From positions 1-46,302 of IMG/VR virus record IMGVR_UViG_3300005056_000005: 46,302 nt of DNA; one strand, given 5' to 3'. How positions within the stretch are numbered: the stretch's first letter is position 1; each line of letters begins with the position of its first letter. Positions 24,302 through 43,999 of this stretch are shown here, piece by piece. The notes beneath the pieces were generated by a model. The model did not search any database. It saw nothing but the letters and a program-made list of their open reading frames with translations, and had not been told where the DNA came from. The position numbers and the translations under genes are program-made. The stretch comes from a virus.

Positions 24302-25503
24302 AATATGTCAACCATGGCAGTATAAGCGGGGATTATATTCGATTGTCCCCCATAAGCTGGGAAAATGTCAATTTCAGCAGTAGCCGCGATTAATGCGGCG
24401 CCTGTTGATATCGCCGCCGCTGTACTGTCGCCAGCCTCAGCCACGTTTGCCGTGATGCTAACAATGTTATTCAGCGTGGCGCTTGTGGTGTCGCCCGCCT
24501 CGTTGACATTGGCAGTTATTTGAGATAGGCCGCCAACTGTGAGACTGGCCGCCGTGGTATCGCCAGCCTCGGCTACGTTAGCGCTAATGCTAACAATGTT
24601 ATTTAGAGTAGCTGTTGTTGTATCGCCTGCTTCGGCTTGATTGGCGGTAATGCTAACGATGGTGGCCAGTGCCGCGGTTGTGGCGTCTCCTGCTTCGGCC
24701 ACGTTAGCGTTAATACTAACAATGTTATTCAGTGCGGCGGTTGTGGCGTCTCCTGCTTCTGCTACGCTTGCGGAAACACTAACAGTAACCTCGAGGGCAG
24801 CGGATGTAGTATCACCAGCCTCATCAACGTCCGCGGTAATTGTGCTTCCGCTAGCCGCGGCTTCCTGCACTAATACAGTGGTAGGAATGCCTCGTCTCGT
24901 AGCTGATAACGTAAAAGCGCCGGGATCTTCGCTGGACACAGACGTTATCGCCCTAGTACAAAATGCTAGGGAGCATTGAGAGCCAGAGACGCCAGACCTA
25001 GTAACACCAGTGTTAATATAACTTGATGGGTAGCTATTAACGTCTGAATTGTGAGTGTCAAACGGCAATACAGCAAACGATAAAATATCCGCCGCGCCGC
25101 CGGTTACATTAACGCTCGGTGGGTCATGAGTAACAGTGTTGCCACCGTTAGTGACTGTTCCTACATCGGGGGCCTGTGTAGCAAAACTTAGGTGTCCCGA
25201 TATTCTGTACGCGCGAGCCGTGAATTCCCCGGAGACTGTAGCAGTTACCGTGATAGACGACGGCTCAGACGCTCCCGCCTGTTTATAGGCCGCTGCGCCG
25301 CTGGAAAAACCGTCGTCGTCGTTTAAATCGTATAACTCGGTATAGCCGTCTGACCATGAGACCGTGCCAGTCCCACCATTATCTCTCGATAGAAAAATAA
25401 GGACGCCCTCACCCTCAAGGGGTGAACCCGTTAAAATCGTGAATGACGTGGTAGCGTTGTCGTCATTGCTGGGAGTTTCAGCAACTATCGTGGGGGATGC
25501 CAT
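24298..25503 (-). CDS. 401-aa protein: N-terminal beta domain plus seven ~20-aa EAGD tandem repeats
   Basis: The repeats have the form I(T/S)ANVAEAGD(T/A)T(T/S)A(A/T)LNNIVS. It lies between terL and the portal gene. Confidence 0.8.
   Translation of the reverse strand: MASPTIVAETPSNDDNATTSFTILTGSPLEGEGVLIFLSRDNGGTGTVSWSDGYTELYDLNDDDGFSSGAAAYKQAGASEPSSITVTATVSGEFTARAYRISGHLSFATQAPDVGTVTNGGNTVTHDPPSVNVTGGAADILSFAVLPFDTHNSDVNSYPSSYINTGVTRSGVSGSQCSLAFCTRAITSVSSEDPGAFTLSATRRGIPTTVLVQEAAASGSTITADVDEAGDTTSAALEVTVSVSASVAEAGDATTAALNNIVSINANVAEAGDATTAALATIVSITANQAEAGDTTTATLNNIVSISANVAEAGDTTAASLTVGGLSQITANVNEAGDTTSATLNNIVSITANVAEAGDSTAAAISTGAALIAATAEIDIFPAYGGQSNIIPAYTAMVDIL
24406..24840. repeat. seven diverged ~60-bp tandem repeats (coding, EAGD repeats)
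   Basis: The recurring gctaacaatgttattyag...gtrtcgccwgcytc units are visible in the sequence. Confidence 0.8.
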
Positions 25504-36094: not shown

Positions 36095-36304
36095 TTATTC
36101 CCACGCATTATTAGACCCGCTACCAGACACAAACCTGGACCCAGACCTGGACCCAGACCCAGGCCTGGACCGAGACCAAGACCCAGACCTGGACCAAGAC
36201 CTAGACCCAGAACTAGACCTAGACCAAGACCCAGAACTAGACCTTTGCCTAGTTCTAGAACCAGAACTAGAACCGGACCTTTTTAATTTATTCCTACGCA
36301 TCAT
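36095..36304 (-). CDS. Ser/Gly/Arg/Trp hexamer-repeat protein, paralog 2 (69 aa)
   Basis: MMRRNKLKRS followed by (S-G/R/W)n. SD GGGAG lies 8 nt upstream. It overlaps paralog 1 by 11 nt. Confidence 0.6.
   Translation of the reverse strand: MMRRNKLKRSGSSSGSRTRQRSSSGSWSRSSSGSRSWSRSGSWSRSRPGSGSRSGSRFVSGSGSNNAWE
36113..36280. repeat. hexanucleotide array, about 28 units of (A/G)GACCN on the plus strand
   Basis: Visible as ggacccagacctggacccagacccaggcctggaccgagaccaagaccc... Confidence 0.85.
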
Positions 36305-36515
36305 CTTTACCGCTCCCAGACCTGGACCCAGACCCAGACCTGGACCCAGACCCAGACCTGGACCGAGACCAAGACCCAGACCTGGACCCAGACCCAGACC
36401 TGGACCAAGACCTAGACCCAGATCTGGACCAAGACCTAGACCCAGATCTGGACCAAGACCAAGACCCAGAACTAGACCTAGACCAAGACCGTGCCAATTT
36501 GCTACGTTTCATCAC
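36294..36515 (-). CDS. Ser/Gly/Arg/Trp hexamer-repeat protein, paralog 1 (73 aa)
   Basis: (V)MKRSKLARS followed by SWSRSSSGSWSWSRSGSRSWSRSGSRSWSRSGSGSRSGSWSRSRSGSGSRSGSGSRSGSGKDDA. There is a strong SD AAAGGGGG 7-10 nt upstream. Confidence 0.65.
   Translation of the reverse strand: MMKRSKLARSWSRSSSGSWSWSRSGSRSWSRSGSRSWSRSGSGSRSGSWSRSRSGSGSRSGSGSRSGSGKDDA
36316..36490. repeat. hexanucleotide array, about 29 units of (A/G)GACCN on the plus strand
   Basis: Visible as ccagacctggacccagacccagacctggaccc... It is the second block of the same repeat. Confidence 0.85.
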
Positions 36516-38087: not shown

Positions 38088-38479
38088 GCCTCATGACGCC
38101 GAAGAGCGTCGAATCTTTCACCTTTGGACGCTGCACGCATCCCGTCGCGGCCTTTTCTGCTCCAACTTAACCTTACCCCTTGGTTATCCGTTCCAAGCCA
38201 GTGTGAAGCAAATAAGGCGTGTGCGTCATCGCTGTTAAATTCTCGCTTTCCGTAGTTGTTTCCGGCCACGTCGATCATCAGCGGCATTGTCGCCCCGTTT
38301 TTTGCCATAAAATCGGCTGTGGTGCTCATCCAGGACCGCCAAAGTCTTGCCATGCCCCATTTTCCAGTGTTGCTAGCATCGCTCGAATTGATGATTAGAT
38401 TCGGCGATTCTTTCAGCTCGTCCTGTAGCGAATTAATTAACGCTGGTAAATTATCAATACTCAAATGAAAATCTTTCAC
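38006..38479 (-). CDS. NinB/Orf-like recombination mediator (tentative)
   Basis: The size (157 aa), the position after the P-like gene, and the blocks KWGMARLWRSWMSTTADF and GERFDALRRHEAWAIEKGI resemble lambda NinB as I recall it. Confidence 0.4.
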   Translation of the reverse strand: MKDFHLSIDNLPALINSLQDELKESPNLIINSSDASNTGKWGMARLWRSWMSTTADFMAKNGATMPLMIDVAGNNYGKREFNSDDAHALFASHWLGTDNQGVRLSWSRKGRDGMRAASKGERFDALRRHEAWAIEKGIILINPRDSEYFKIAEEQGY

Positions 38480-39120
38480 GTTTTGCCGCCTATCAATTTT
38501 GTATCGATTTTCGCTAGGGCCTGACTTAGCGGAGTTGATAGCCGGGGCTTGTCACCGCCACCCTGGAACACCGCTAGCGCTTTCTTGTGGTCACCCAGTA
38601 GGATTGGTTCTGGAATTTTAGCGTTGACGTGCTGATGATTGTGGGCCTCAGTGATGCCGATTAATTTTTTCGGCCAGCGCTCAAGTTTTGAGTTTAAAAA
38701 ACCCTTGTACCGGGTCACAAACTCATTCCGAATAAACGGCAATTCCTTTTCGGTCACTTCACAGATTGTTATCCAGCCACCCATCCCCTCGATCACGGCC
38801 ATTATTTGCGGCTCATCAAAAACAACCGTTTGATAGGATCCCGTACTAGATATCTCGGCCACGACTTTAGACCACGCCTGCAAAGCTCTGCTAGCTGTAT
38901 CGCCGTCGATGTAGCGAATCACATCAGCCGGTTTTGGCGCAAACTGTCCGCCGTCAGGGTTTCTCATGTGCGCATCTAGCGCTCTGCGAACATCATCGAG
39001 CTCGTAACTCATTAGAGATCTAAACACCATTCCAATAGCGGCGGAGCTTGGCACTTTGCCCACGACCTCGCATGTTGCCGCCCAGACTGCGCTGAATTGC
39101 TGGAAATCATTTTTATTCAT
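38476..39120 (-). CDS. lambda P-like replication protein (helicase loader)
   Basis: GGQFAPKPADVIRYI (compare lambda P PFLPSPGQFVAWC) and the C-terminal IPEP...LSQALAKI (compare IPEP...AQALAKI). It lies immediately after the initiator-like gene and has no Walker A. Confidence 0.5.
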   Translation of the reverse strand: MNKNDFQQFSAVWAATCEVVGKVPSSAAIGMVFRSLMSYELDDVRRALDAHMRNPDGGQFAPKPADVIRYIDGDTASRALQAWSKVVAEISSTGSYQTVVFDEPQIMAVIEGMGGWITICEVTEKELPFIRNEFVTRYKGFLNSKLERWPKKLIGITEAHNHQHVNAKIPEPILLGDHKKALAVFQGGGDKPRLSTPLSQALAKIDTKLIGGKT

Positions 39121-39123
39121 AAT

Positions 39124-40029
39124 TTAATCCGGTAGGTCGTCTAAAAATCCTGAGTCAATAACGTCCTGGGCTGCCCGCATTGATCGTTGCTGAAACTGGG
39201 CAATGGTTTCCGGTTGTCTGGGATCCGCTGGGGTTATTTTTGCTATGTTGTCCGCGAAATTTTCCATTTTCGTGCTCTCTCGGCAAATTAGCTCAATATC
39301 GTCATACACCGTTCCCTGGTCATTTTGGCCCATATGATGCGGCGATTTAGCGCAACCATCGATAGCCGATTTAATATAATCAACCGTGTAGCCATCTTTG
39401 AGTCTGTCAATGATTTTAGATTTTCGTTTTTTAGTGAGTTTTGTTTGATCGGTTTTGCCCATTCTGTAAACCCAATGATTAAATATTTCCTGAACATCAT
39501 CAGAAACCGGTATGTCGGGCTTGCTCGACAATGCTTTTGTATCTTTATCTTTATCTTTATCTTTATCTTTATCTTTATCTTTATCTTTATCTTTATCTTT
39601 ATGGTTAGAGTCTCGTTCCTTTTCCGTTGCAACACTAGCTAAACGTTCGCCCAACGTCTGTTTAACGTTCGTTGGTTTTTCGTTGGATTCCTGTTCTTTT
39701 TTACGCTTTCTGGCCGCTGCTGACGCTTTTCCACCTTTTGAAGAACTAATAGATTTGCTTAAAACGAACTCAAGATCACGGTCAATTCGGTCATGTTGCC
39801 AGTGTGTTTCAGTCACATTGAAAAATTCACTCAACACTTCCTCAACGTCCGTCCAACGTTCGTTGGACAAGCGTGCAACGCCAGCTAAACGCTTCTTAGG
39901 AATCGGTTTGCCTGTTTGCCAATAATTCATCATAAGCAGAAGATATGCCCCGTTTTCCTCCGTCGTTAAATGGAACGTATCAGCGATGTAATCGGCCACA
40001 TATAGCTGCATATAAGGTAAAGCTGCCAT
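39124..40029 (-). CDS. replication initiator-like protein: DUF1376 (YdaU) N-domain, (KD)10 linker, conserved phage C-terminal domain
   Basis: LPYMQLYVADYIADTFHLTTEENGAYLLLMMNYWQTGKPIP matches DUF1376. The C-terminal FNHWVYRMGK...KRKSKIIDRLKDGYTVDYIKSAIDGCAKSPHHMGQND resembles Phg_2220_C. Confidence 0.8.
   Translation of the reverse strand: MAALPYMQLYVADYIADTFHLTTEENGAYLLLMMNYWQTGKPIPKKRLAGVARLSNERWTDVEEVLSEFFNVTETHWQHDRIDRDLEFVLSKSISSSKGGKASAAARKRKKEQESNEKPTNVKQTLGERLASVATEKERDSNHKDKDKDKDKDKDKDKDKDKDTKALSSKPDIPVSDDVQEIFNHWVYRMGKTDQTKLTKKRKSKIIDRLKDGYTVDYIKSAIDGCAKSPHHMGQNDQGTVYDDIELICRESTKMENFADNIAKITPADPRQPETIAQFQQRSMRAAQDVIDSGFLDDLPD
39541..39600. repeat. perfect hexanucleotide microsatellite (ATCTTT)x10, encoding (KD)10 on the minus strand
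   Basis: Counted directly: 60 nt, 83% A+T. Confidence 0.95.
39631..39686. repeat. cluster I of 11-bp-phased AACGT(T/C) / CGTTGG motifs (candidate iterons)
   Basis: AACGT starts at 39642, 39653 and 39664, with a degenerate AACAC at 39631. CGTTGG occurs at 39670 and 39681. Confidence 0.5.
39844..39893. repeat. cluster II of 11-bp-phased AACG(T/C) motifs, including the palindrome CCAACGttCGTTGG (39853..39866)
   Basis: AACG starts at 39844, 39855, 39877 and 39888. Confidence 0.5.
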
Positions 40030-40043
40030 GATTTCCCCTTTAG

Positions 40044-40247
40044 CTATTCAGCTTCCTTTATCCACCTGTCAAGCGCTTCTTTTTCGTATCGCACTGGTGA
40101 TGTTTTGCTCTTGCCTAGCTTTGAGTACTTTGGTGCGTCTCTACCTGCAAGAACTCCAGTAGACCTGCCTATTCTTAGTGTCCCTGGAGAGTAACCCAGG
40201 TAAATTGCAGCCTGCTTTGCCGTCAAAAACGCTCTTTCTTCACTCAT
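40044..40247 (-). CDS. small HTH DNA-binding protein (AlpA/excisionase-type fold), first gene of the leftward operon (Cro-like position)
   Basis: FLTAKQAAIYLGYSPGTLRIGR...VRYEKEALDRWI matches the HTH_17/AlpA pattern. Confidence 0.7.
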   Translation of the reverse strand: MSEERAFLTAKQAAIYLGYSPGTLRIGRSTGVLAGRDAPKYSKLGKSKTSPVRYEKEALDRWIKEAE

Positions 40248-40278
40248 TATGTTGACTCTTTATTGATTTTGAGATTAG

Positions 40279-40307
40279 ACAATAATACACGAGTTAGTAT
40301 AAGTCAA
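40279..40307 (-). promoter_or_regulatory. candidate leftward promoter TTGACT-17-TATTGT
   Basis: On the minus strand the -35 is 40307..40302 and the -10 is 40284..40279. The -35 lies inside the inverted repeat AGTATAA-N8-TTATACT (40296..40317). Confidence 0.4.
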
Positions 40308-40333
40308 CTATTATACTTTCTTGTAAATATATG

Positions 40334-40362
40334 TTGACAGTCATGTTAACTATTGCTAAATT
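40334..40362 (+). promoter_or_regulatory. candidate rightward promoter TTGACA-17-TAAATT
   Basis: It has a consensus -35 and a 17-nt spacer. It lies inside the track ORF start, so the CDS more likely begins at 40394. Confidence 0.5.
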
Positions 40363-41565: not shown

Positions 41566-42055
41566 AGGCGTTAACAAAGTAATAATTGTCGGGAATTTGG
41601 GTCAAGATCCAGAGGTTAAATATATGCCCAGCGGCGACTGTATAGCTAATATATCAATAGCTACCAGCGAATCTTGGAAAGACAAGCAGACAGGTCAACA
41701 GCAAGAGCGTACCGAGTGGCATCAGGCATGTTTTTTTGGAAGACTTGCTGAAATAGCTAGGGATTATTTAAAAAAAGGCGCTAAGGTTTACATAGAAGGG
41801 TCTCTAAGAACAAGAAAATGGAAAGATAAGCAGACAGGTCAGGACAGATATAGTACTGATATTGTGGTTAAGGAAATGCAAATGTTAGACAGTAGAGGCG
41901 ACAACCCGCAGCCCGGACAGCAGCCCGGACAGCAGCCTAGCCAACCGCAACAACAGAGCCAGCAGCAGAGCCAGCAGCAGCCGCAACAGAATCAAGGGTA
42001 TCAGCCTGCTGGTCCTGATGTTGGGGATGCTTTTGATGACGATATCCCATTCTAA
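41558..42055 (+). CDS. ssb: single-stranded DNA-binding protein
   Basis: The OB-fold N-terminus [21 protein letters not shown]...TEWH, the Gln/Pro-rich linker and the acidic tail DDDIPF are all present. Confidence 0.95.
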
Positions 42056-42343: not shown

Positions 42344-42370
42344 AATAACAACACATTAAAGGATAAGAAA
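42344..42370 (+). repeat. conserved leader AATAACAACACATTAAAGGATAAGAAA, copy 1 of 8
   Basis: It directly precedes ATG 42371. Confidence 0.8.
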
Positions 42371-42568
42371 ATGGATGAAGGTAGGAACAGAGGAAAGTGT
42401 CCTAAGTGTCGATGTAAGAAGGTTAACATCTACGACCACCCCACCGTCTTGCGCCCTGATCAATATACAGAGTACAGTTGTGAAAATTGTGGGTGGCTTG
42501 TTGGTATGATTGACAATTCGCCCTATGTTAGTTGTTACGATTTTGAAGATTTTGTAATAGAAATATAA
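42371..42568 (+). CDS. small zinc-ribbon protein (65 aa from MDEGRNRGKCPKC)
   Basis: CPKC...CENC motifs. The start is set by the conserved leader; the track start at 42338 lies inside the leader. Confidence 0.7.
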   Translation: MDEGRNRGKCPKCRCKKVNIYDHPTVLRPDQYTEYSCENCGWLVGMIDNSPYVSCYDFEDFVIEI

Positions 42569-42590
42569 AAACACATTAAAGGATAAGAAA
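42567..42590 (+). repeat. conserved leader, copy 2 (AAAAACACATTAAAGGATAAGAAA)
   Basis: It directly precedes ATG 42591. Confidence 0.8.
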
Positions 42591-42782
42591 ATGAGCGACG
42601 TAAAAAAAACAATTCTAGATTCAATCGACGATGTTGTTGGTGATTTTATGTATTACGATAGAAAAGAGGACGAGGATTTGCCATTGGGCGCAATAGAGGA
42701 GGCCTTAAAAGCAGGAGATATCACATACAATGAAATTGTAGACAGATTCAAACAGAAAATATATGAAGTGCTTAGTTTATGA
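42591..42782 (+). CDS. hypothetical acidic protein (63 aa)
   Basis: An ORF after leader copy 2. Confidence 0.7.
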   Translation: MSDVKKTILDSIDDVVGDFMYYDRKEDEDLPLGAIEEALKAGDITYNEIVDRFKQKIYEVLSL

Positions 42783-42785
42783 TTT

Positions 42786-42809
42786 ATCAATACATTAAAG
42801 GATAAGAAA
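42786..42809 (+). repeat. conserved leader, copy 3 (ATCAATACATTAAAGGATAAGAAA)
   Basis: It directly precedes ATG 42810. Confidence 0.8.
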
Positions 42810-43760
42810 ATGAGTGAAGACAAATCTAGTCTTGAGATAGTACTAGAACAAACTAGCGCTTTAGTGGTGTTTAAAAAAGATGGAGTAGAGAATCTTGTTA
42901 GTAAGATCGAGGACGAAGTCAGAAGTGTTGTGCATGATGTTACAACAAAAAACGGCAGGAAGGAAATGGCTTCTCTTGCCTATAAAGTTAGCTGTTCTAA
43001 GACTGCATTAGACGCCCTTGGAAAAGATTTAGTGGCTGAATGGAAAGCAAAGTCTAAGGCGGTAGACTCGGATCGAAAGAAAATAAGAGATAGACTTGAC
43101 GCCTTGAGGGATGAAGTTAGAAATCCATTAACTGAATGGGAAGCGGTGGAAAAAGCCAAAGTTGAAAAAGAAAAATTAGAGACTGAAAAAGCCAAAGCGC
43201 AAGAATTCGCAATAGATGAAAACGATTTATTTGATAGGCAAAAGGCGATCGAATTAAAAGAAGAAGAGCAGCGGCAAGCAGAGTTAAAGCGCATTGAGGA
43301 AGAGGGGGTGGCCAAGGCTGAAAAAGAACAGCGCGAACGAGAAGAGAGATTATTGAGCAAGGCGGCAGAGGAGGCTAAAGAGGAAGCTCAGCGTAAGGCA
43401 CAGCAGGCAAAGGTTGACGCAGAAGAGCGACTGAATGAAGAGCGTGAAGCTAAGCAAAAAGCTCAGTGGAAGGCGGAACAGGAAAAGGTTTTGGCGGAAG
43501 AGCGCAGAATTAAAGACCTTGAAGAACAAGAAGAACGACTAAAAAAAGAGCACAAAGCCAAGGAAGCGGAACGCCTAAAAAAAGAGGCTGACGAACGAGA
43601 AAAGGCAGAAATAAAAGCAGCCGATAAAAAAAATCAAAGAATTATTAACAACGAAATATTAGCTTCCCTTCAATCTATTGGGATAAGCGAGGAACATTCT
43701 AGATTGATAATCACTAAAGTGGCCAGAAATGAAATTCCAAAGTTGAAAATAATTTACTGA
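42810..43760 (+). CDS. Glu/Lys-rich coiled-coil protein (316 aa), DUF1351-like?
   Basis: A long EKAKxE-type helical region. The N-terminal block LAYKVSCSKTALDALGKDLVAEWKAKSKAVDSDRKKIRDRLDALRDEV resembles DUF1351 proteins found near phage recombinases. Confidence 0.7.
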   Translation: MSEDKSSLEIVLEQTSALVVFKKDGVENLVSKIEDEVRSVVHDVTTKNGRKEMASLAYKVSCSKTALDALGKDLVAEWKAKSKAVDSDRKKIRDRLDALRDEVRNPLTEWEAVEKAKVEKEKLETEKAKAQEFAIDENDLFDRQKAIELKEEEQRQAELKRIEEEGVAKAEKEQREREERLLSKAAEEAKEEAQRKAQQAKVDAEERLNEEREAKQKAQWKAEQEKVLAEERRIKDLEEQEERLKKEHKAKEAERLKKEADEREKAEIKAADKKNQRIINNEILASLQSIGISEEHSRLIITKVARNEIPKLKIIY

Positions 43761-43801: not shown

Positions 43802-43828
43802 AATAACAACACATTAAAGGGGATGAAA
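43802..43828 (+). repeat. conserved leader, copy 4 (AATAACAACACATTAAAGGGGATGAAA)
   Basis: It directly precedes ATG 43829. Confidence 0.8.
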
Positions 43829-43999
43829 ATGGATAAGTGTAGCCCTGTAGAAATGAGAAAGAATCTATGTCTTGTAGATGAGTTTGTAAAAGCTGGCATT
43901 GATTTTGTAGCTATTCCAGCGTTGAGCGATAGTGACAAAGCAGCACTAATTAATCAGCAAAATACCGCTTTAACTAAAGCGATAGAGTCATGTGAATAA
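43829..43999 (+). CDS. hypothetical protein (56 aa from MDKCSPVEM)
   Basis: The start is set by analogy with the other leader copies. Confidence 0.65.
   Translation: MDKCSPVEMRKNLCLVDEFVKAGIDFVAIPALSDSDKAALINQQNTALTKAIESCE

Follow-up and report, generated by a model that had tools for sequence, protein, structure and literature searches.

Background

In phage lambda the origin of replication lies inside the initiator gene O, in the DNA that codes for the linker between a DNA-binding N-terminal domain and a C-terminal domain that recruits the partner protein. Four 18-base-pair (bp) iterons occupy nucleotides (nt) 349-433 of the 900-nt gene, and a purine-rich A+T tract begins at nt 434. Here we describe a locus of similar layout in a viral sequence of 46,302 nt (IMG/VR record IMGVR_UViG_3300005056_000005, positions 1 to 46,302; "the window" refers to this whole stretch). 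The element consists of repeats phased at 11 bp and an A+T-rich hexanucleotide microsatellite, and it falls at 39.5-39.9 kilobases (kb) within a gene for a DUF1376/YdaU protein, referred to below as the initiator gene. Comparison with related genes indicates that the region is probably a phage replication origin with a lambda-ori-like layout, served by an initiator superfamily (DUF1376/YdaU and Lin1244_N) that is unrelated to lambda O.

Other origins invite comparison as well. The iteron origins of plasmids such as R6K, RK2, pSC101, F and P1 place initiator-binding repeats in whole-turn spacing beside an A+T-rich unwinding element; their iterons, about 17-22 bp long and repeated about every 22 bp, lie between genes and are usually accompanied by DnaA boxes. 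In phage SPP1, oriL lies inside gene 38 and comprises direct repeats bound by G38P together with an A+T-rich unwinding element, with the genes for a helicase loader and a helicase downstream (PMC6316719). The Rac prophage of E. coli has a functional origin, oriJ (PMC3945230). Our literature search found no paper that links the DUF1376/YdaU family to an origin or describes the repeat signal reported here.

Layout of the locus and comparison with known origins

The features that carry the argument are the following.

39124..40029, minus strand: initiator gene, 906 nt, 301 amino acids (aa), Pfam PF07120 (DUF1376/YdaU)
39833..39891: distal repeat cluster, gene nt ~139-197, inside the DNA coding for the DUF1376 domain, encoding ...LAGVARLSNERWTDVEEVL...
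39607..39695: proximal repeat cluster, gene nt ~335-423, about 5-7 units at 11-bp pitch, encoding ...ESNEKPTNVKQTLGERLASVATEKE... in shifting reading frames
39663-39673 (AACGAACGTTA on the coding strand), 39652-39662 and 39674-39684: strongest units of the proximal cluster
39541-39600: (ATCTTT)10, which is (AAAGAT)10 on the coding strand, gene nt 430-489, candidate DNA unwinding element and (KD)10 linker

An earlier note on this DNA had the motifs flanking the microsatellite. Both clusters in fact lie on the same side of it, at higher plus-strand coordinates and thus upstream in the coding sense; the motif and microsatellite coordinates given in that note all proved exact on re-checking. The note had also likened the arrangement to lambda ori, and here the agreement is close; the gene coordinates of repeats and tract nearly coincide in the two genes. 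In both, a purine-rich A+T tract comes after the dyad-symmetric array in the coding direction, and the gene belongs to an early operon that is transcribed through the site. The lambda tract is 78% A+T and 75% purine when measured in the same way as that of the window, which is 83% A+T and, on the coding strand, 83% purine. The peptides encoded by the tracts are also alike, DTKDTITKEKRKD in lambda and (KD)n or (TD)n here.

The differences from lambda are nonetheless substantial. The window units are 9-10 bp long and contiguous at 11-bp pitch, whereas the four lambda iterons have a pitch of 20-24 bp; the window gene has a second cluster inside domain-coding DNA; its unwinding tract is a perfect microsatellite of variable length; and its repeat is conserved across a superfamily, whereas the lambda type diverges between close relatives. 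The description of the initiator as O-like holds for the layout and for a PHROG name (the protein matches the families "primosomal protein" and "replication initiation O-like"), but not for descent, since a 31-sequence profile detected no homology to lambda O (hhalign probability 0.07%).

As in SPP1 oriL, repeats and an A+T-rich element lie within the gene of the presumed origin-binding protein itself, but the protein families differ. Pfam finds DUF1376 and no other family in the initiator at E <= 0.01, and no homology to the N-terminal domain of replisome organisers of the SPP1 G38P type; DnaD appeared only as a non-significant fold match. SPP1 also has a second origin copy, oriR, at another site of its genome; no second copy was found in the 46-kb window. 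Plasmid iteron origins differ in that the window array has a pitch of a single helical turn, lies in coding sequence and has no DnaA box within the element, the nearest match with one mismatch being at 40058. The only small plasmid found to carry a YdaU-family gene has its own RepM replicon and is uninformative.

The comparison with Rac concerns a member of the same family. Rac YdaU is a DUF1376 protein (RefSeq K-12), and the DNA coding for its N-terminal domain is 72% identical to the window gene over the aligning stretch. In its linker DNA, at the equivalent gene position, ydaU has phased repeats together with an (ACAGAT/AAAGAT) tract. Unlike the window, Rac has the repeat variant TGTT[C/G]AAAC, a different C-terminal domain, and ydaV (ATP-binding / putative replication protein) as the downstream gene.

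Phasing of the repeats

AACGT begins at 39642, 39653, 39664, 39844 and 39855, with further AACG at 39877 and 39888, and CGTTGG begins at 39670, 39681 and 39861. The palindrome CCAACGTTCGTTGG at 39853-39866 is part of the distal cluster. In an 11-nt register both clusters resolve into degenerate copies of AACGTTCGTTG on the plus strand, or CAACGAACGTT on the coding strand. Scored against a position weight matrix, the proximal units give 11.5, 8.9, 5.7, 4.6 and 3.9, all in a single common phase, and the distal units 13.0 and 8.9; the repeats of the initiator gene thus form an in-gene array of at least three dyad-symmetric direct repeats. The two clusters are 71% identical over 49 nt and are translated in different reading frames, such that CCAACGAACGTT is read P-T-N-V in one and (S)-N-E-R-W in the other.

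A lag of 11 gives the highest self-identity in each cluster, with 22 and 33 next. Over 39601-39900 the lag-11 self-identity is 0.412; multiples of 3 aside, no period anywhere in the 46-kb window is stronger. When codons were resampled synonymously from the codon usage of the window, with the protein held fixed, the null value was 0.307 ± 0.022 and none of 2000 resamples reached the observed one. The 11-bp phasing is therefore not a product of the protein sequence; the earlier note had likewise argued that it is no by-product of amino-acid repeats. After a look-elsewhere correction that took in all 68-bp windows of the gene and all lags other than multiples of 3, the observed value was reached by 2 of 300 resamples. 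Within the 46-kb window all four occurrences of AACG-N7-AACG and both of CGTT-N7-CGTT fall in the repeat region of the initiator gene, and no comparable repeat array was found elsewhere.

Conservation in related genes

The repeat signal is kept in related genes of hundreds of other phage and prophage sequences. In these relatives, drawn from viral contigs, metagenomes and named prophages, copies of AACG spaced by exact multiples of 11 nt immediately precede, in the coding direction, a tract of (AAAGAT)n, (ACAGAT)n, (ATAGAT)n or (AAGAG)n; one contig (L004), for example, has three copies of TCAACGACCGT followed by four of AAAGAT and then AAAGAA. The hosts of the prophage copies are Gamma-, Beta- and Alphaproteobacteria.

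Two samples, assembled in opposite directions, describe the pattern. The first comprised 70 unique DUF1376 genes selected by protein similarity only. The best lag that is not a multiple of 3 was 11 in 53 of the 70, and 66 carried AACGNNCGTT at gene nt 241-480. AACG pairs were separated by multiples of 11 in 262 of 552 cases (47%), compared with 9% by chance. A metagenome sample that partly overlaps this one gave the same 11-nt pattern. The second sample came from a reverse scan, in which viral contigs were searched by DNA pattern alone, and it yielded at least 119 loci. Among the matches listed, a DUF1376 N-terminal domain lay within 1 kb of the motif at 78 of 119 loci, the motif fell at gene nt 300-400 in 77 of 91 occurrences, and a strand-asymmetric A-rich tract followed directly downstream at 101 of 119; most of the other loci listed were Lin1244_N (PF14297) or weak DUF1376 genes of the same layout. 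The N-terminal domains of DUF1376 and Lin1244_N are homologous (hhalign probability 95.5%).

The cassette shared by the window and the family can be described as AACG-NN-CGTT-type units at 11-nt pitch, at gene nt ~300-420, with a periodic A-rich tract of A/T-ending codons within about 40 nt. Synonymous change in the relatives has not scrambled the AACGT phasing, an outcome that the earlier note had said would refute its claim: proteins only 32-70% identical keep the unit, the 11-bp pitch, the gene position and the A-rich tract, with synonymous sites fixed. The closest full-length protein relatives of the initiator are 55% identical, and no relative at 80-95% identity that spans the repeat region was found in any collection searched. 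A megablast of 16 kb against GenBank phages gave no match.

Variants of the cassette were also seen. A large subgroup, for example L147, L167 and L184 (gene nt ~320-420), has in place of the hexamers an 11-nt-periodic tract of nearly all A and C, AACCAATAACC..., which is translated QPTNNQEPITNNHKP. Lin1244_N genes (L108, L123, L130, L192, L203 and others) have TCAACGACCGT repeats followed by a (AAAGGAAAGTAAAG)n tract. The peptide AGKASAEKR, directly before the repeats, is conserved in both families.

Constraint on DNA rather than protein

Each of the three frames is used in translating the 11-nt unit ("NDRSTTVQRPFN", i.e. NDRS/TTV/QRPF), and in two-copy arrays the reading frame differs between genes. 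A function at the level of the peptide is therefore ruled out. Codon choice gives a consistent picture. In 25 genes of less than 90% identity, with test positions picked by peptide pattern only, linker Arg is coded CGT in 22 of 23 cases (background 20%), Ser TCA in 22 of 23 (22%) and Thr ACG in 22 of 23 (30%). In the domain cluster, Arg is CGT in 21 of 22 cases (20%) and Val is GTT in 21 of 21 (39%); the distal cluster of the window itself reads AAC GAA CGT TGG ACG GAC GTT over the N-x-R-W..V codons, with Arg as CGT and Val as GTT. In the [T/K/I]D repeats of 26 independent arrays Thr is always ACA, Lys is always AAA, and Asp is GAT in 110 of 111 cases. This preference for A and T holds in genes of at least 55% G+C, where A/T-ending codons otherwise make up 23-34%.

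The two clusters change together. Genes of the Rac type keep the peptide NERW and code its Arg as CGA or CGC, and their linker repeats are changed symmetrically, from CGTT[C/G]AACG to TGTT[C/G]AAAC. Covariation of the domain-cluster and linker repeats is seen over 26 genes (counts 22/0/2/2, Fisher p = 0.018). A natural domain swap points the same way: the genes at L219:3062-3991 and L221:501-1430 combine a C-terminal domain of the window type (73% DNA identity) with an unrelated N-terminal domain, and their linker DNA has (CTGATTCC)n / a 21-nt repeat in place of the AACG array. The repeats thus travel with the N-terminal domain. Taken as sequence evidence, these results make it very probable that the repeat region is a cis-element acting at the level of DNA.

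The microsatellite tract

Tandem Repeats Finder (TRF) places the microsatellite at 39540-39602, with 10.5 copies and 100% matches. As the earlier note had it, the array at 39541-39600 encodes (KD)10, on the minus strand, at the A+T content given above. It is the most A+T-rich 60-mer of the window and also the least stable, at -59.1 kcal/mol against a mean of -80.3 (standard deviation 5.5).

The same note proposed that the tract encodes a flexible linker and changes length by slippage without loss of frame; the first proposal is supported and the second confirmed. In the AlphaFold2 model of the initiator (predicted local distance difference test score, pLDDT, 80.7), aa 1-117 and a helical C-terminal region, aa 173-264, are folded, and aa 128-172, which include (KD)10, are predicted to be disordered (pLDDT <50). 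The proximal cluster corresponds to aa 112-141 and the microsatellite to aa 144-163, which places the array in DNA coding for the inter-domain linker. Two sequences (L018 and L019, from IMG metagenomes 3300029926 and 3300029805) that are 99.5% identical over 3.7-4.3 kb have eight hexamers against the ten found here; this is the sole difference in the initiator gene, and it stays in frame.

The contig of an 84%-identical relative (L218:1-456) ends exactly inside the (AAAGAT)n array, and the microsatellite therefore breaks short-read assemblies. A second and much longer hexanucleotide array occurs at 36133-36490 (59.5 copies by TRF), in the region 36095-36515, which consists of two tandem small open reading frames (ORFs) on the minus strand, 73 and 69 aa long. 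Both begin MM[KR]R.KL.RS and continue as (SGSRSW)n, and PHROG gave no match for either.

Initiator protein and neighbouring genes

The DUF1376/YdaU domain spans aa 5-86 of the initiator (PF07120, E = 6.3e-25, 87.8 bits against a cut-off of 30.1), and in the model the fold reaches to about aa 117, beyond the Pfam match. Structural comparison of the model suggests that the N-terminal domain may be winged-helix-like, on fold matches that are not significant. A sequence search against PDB returned only spurious low-complexity matches, for example to nucleoporins. Further features surround the gene.

39513..39530: imperfect palindrome TGTCGGGCTTGCTCGACA, directly beyond the microsatellite, possible accessory element
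38476..39120, minus strand: DUF6475 gene, directly downstream of the initiator, Pfam PF20081, E = 4e-28
40044..40247, minus strand: small helix-turn-helix (HTH) gene at the head of the leftward initiator operon, HTH_17, E = 2e-5, below the Pfam cut-off
40279..40337, minus strand (leftward): two sigma-70-like promoter matches, by consensus only (10/12 and 9/12)

The palindrome TGTCGGGCTTGCTCGACA presumably recalls the one to the right of lambda's A+T-rich tract; it turned up as a single terminator-like site in a scan, no more than expected by chance in that scan. The predicted promoters at 40337-40279 point through the HTH gene into the initiator. The divergent intergenic region that separates the leftward HTH/initiator operon from the rightward one is bounded by two exact copies of a 9-nt direct repeat, TATGTTGAC (40248-40256 and 40330-40338), which are possibly operator or promoter elements.

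The downstream gene had been called lambda-P-like, which is apt for its position but not for its sequence or fold. Its product is a DUF6475 protein with no sequence similarity to lambda P (hhalign probability 0.6%), and its model (pLDDT 86) has no fold match in PDB. The synteny of initiator and DUF6475 gene is conserved in L012 and L013, and in other family members a DnaC-like or DnaB-like gene comes next after the initiator. By its position, the DUF6475 protein is a plausible candidate for a helicase-recruiting partner.

The ORFs of the window that were searched included no further recognisable initiator, helicase or primase. The remainder of the window forms a myovirus-like module for structure and packaging. 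The window also contains a ParB-like gene and gives no Rfam match. Elsewhere, a 21-nt plus-strand element comprising a ribosome-binding site and ATG, ACATTAAAGGATAAGAAAATG, occurs in identical form at 42353-42373, 42573-42593 and 42792-42812, and with three mismatches at 43811-43831; those at 42573 and 42792 finish on the start codons of two ORFs, 42591 and 42810 respectively, and none would be expected by chance. A 63-bp tandem repeat of 3.4 copies (24569-24784) lies inside a 401-aa ORF without a PHROG match, and Q/P-rich 12-nt repeats (41908-41989) lie in the C-terminal tail of the gene for SSB, the protein that binds single-stranded DNA.

Alternative explanations

Several observations weigh against reading the locus as an origin. 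We infer origin function from sequence, here and for DUF1376 genes generally. The repeats of the window are less regular than the family consensus, with about three strong proximal units and two distal ones. The samples used for comparison lack phylogenetic independence, and there is some overlap between the IMG/VR and metagenome sets. In the fold search the top matches of the initiator were all winged-helix proteins (MarR family, the wH domain of Rio2, DnaD), none of them significant (best E = 0.14). The cumulative GC skew has its minimum near 40 kb, but this coincides with the switch from minus- to plus-strand genes and is therefore uninformative on the origin. The RefSeq K-12 annotation has no oriJ feature. 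Finally, the unit is conserved over two Pfam families and several host phyla, unlike the fast-diverging O/iteron pairs of lambdoid phages, and this leaves room for a reader other than the N-terminal domain.

If the repeats are binding sites of the initiator, they could serve autoregulation, a transcription roadblock or copy control by handcuffing, with replication starting elsewhere, for example in the intergenic region 40248-40330. Initiator repeats of iteron plasmids commonly serve both roles, and the intergenic stretch at 40.25-40.33 kb is itself high in A+T (a fraction of 0.77 across 60 nt), and the 100-mer that starts at 40233 ranks second in the window for low stability. That region, however, has promoter-like hexamers but no repeat array, and a conserved pairing of repeats with an adjoining, codon-biased, meltable tract is needed by an origin and not by a mere operator; we consider this explanation unlikely. 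A different reader, either a host factor or another phage protein, would make the element a cis-site for packaging, partition or recombination. The presence of a ParB-like gene in the window and the persistence of the unit over two Pfam N-domain families and hosts of several phyla speak for such a role. The element nevertheless always accompanies an N-terminal domain of the homologous DUF1376 and Lin1244_N families and changes when that domain is swapped, and without exception the proximal array lies within the initiator gene, at a constant gene position, with nothing like it elsewhere in the window, so that we regard a different reader as quite improbable. We would give even less weight to the idea that the DNA at the domain boundary is conserved chiefly as a junction at which phages recombine to swap C-terminal, helicase-recruiting modules. 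The C-terminal domains beyond the tract do differ widely (DnaT-like, Phg_2220_C and SPHHMGQND types), and N-domain swaps with a junction near the linker exist (L219/L221), but a junction would account neither for the distal cluster inside the domain and the dyad-symmetric units nor for their 11-bp spacing, the covariation of the clusters or the A/T codon bias. The swapping of modules is more probably a side effect, as it is at lambda ori.

Synonymous constraint by itself would fit a function in RNA as well as in DNA, for instance translation pausing or stability of the initiator mRNA. With no Rfam match, with 4-nt half-sites 1-2 nt apart that cannot make stable hairpins, and with dyad units at the helical-turn pitch typical of sites for proteins that bind duplex DNA, a role in RNA seems very improbable. 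The least credible explanation is that the locus is an ordinary low-complexity linker with chance motif spacing and no function at the DNA level. Disordered linkers rich in KD or TD are common, and the genome has its second hexamer array at 36.1-36.5 kb, but this account is contradicted by phasing that codon resampling never reproduced, by synonymous sites fixed at 32-70% identity and by the reading of the unit in three frames. The origin proposed in the earlier note, made of phased repeats and an A+T-rich tract in linker-coding DNA, is thus supported computationally, its activity as an origin being the part read from the sequence.

Proposed mechanism and significance

On the origin reading, the N-terminal winged-helix-like domain would bind short dyad units, probably as dimers, of the form AACG-NN-CGTT or, equivalently, CGTT-N-AACG. 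These recur every 11 bp, about one helical turn, in the proximal cluster (linker DNA) and in the distal cluster some 190 bp away (domain DNA), and the resulting nucleoprotein complex would strain the adjoining (AAAGAT)10 until it melts. The C-terminal domain would then recruit the host replicative helicase, possibly with the DUF6475 protein, and transcription from promoters near 40.3 kb would cross the site. The microsatellite would serve both as unwinding element and as disordered (KD)n linker, its length shifting by in-frame slippage. That this protein binds the repeats, that the tract melts, that a helicase is recruited and that replication starts at the site are all steps we infer.

A bolder version of the origin reading, which we put forward as speculative and rather doubtful, is that the whole superfamily carries one sequence-conserved origin cassette. 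The tract would then be no passive A+T-rich DNA but a periodic, strand-asymmetric platform (6-nt NNAGAT, 5-nt AAGAG or 11-nt AACCAATAACC) that the initiator or proteins loading the helicase recognise in single-stranded form. Since this platform is a slippage-prone microsatellite that doubles as the linker, changes in its copy number would tune origin firing and initiator geometry jointly, as a replication contingency locus.

What is new here, most likely, is the occurrence of a known kind of origin, the in-gene iteron origin, in an unrelated protein superfamily, as its sequence features suggest. In temperate phages and prophages of Proteobacteria, DUF1376/YdaU proteins, including that of E. 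coli Rac, count among the most frequent candidates for the replication initiator. If the reading is correct, many phage and prophage origins could be located by the signature of an 11-bp-phased CGTT[C/G]AACG array and an A-rich periodic tract at gene nt ~300-490, and oriJ would have a testable position inside ydaU. The locus would also be a clean case of overlapping codes, with one DNA repeat translated in three frames and synonymous sites frozen by a function at the DNA level, and such linkers would mislead analyses of codon usage and of the ratio of non-synonymous to synonymous substitution rates (dN/dS), as well as assemblers. The solution adopted by lambda, an origin in the linker DNA of its own initiator, would then have arisen or persisted in an unrelated superfamily.

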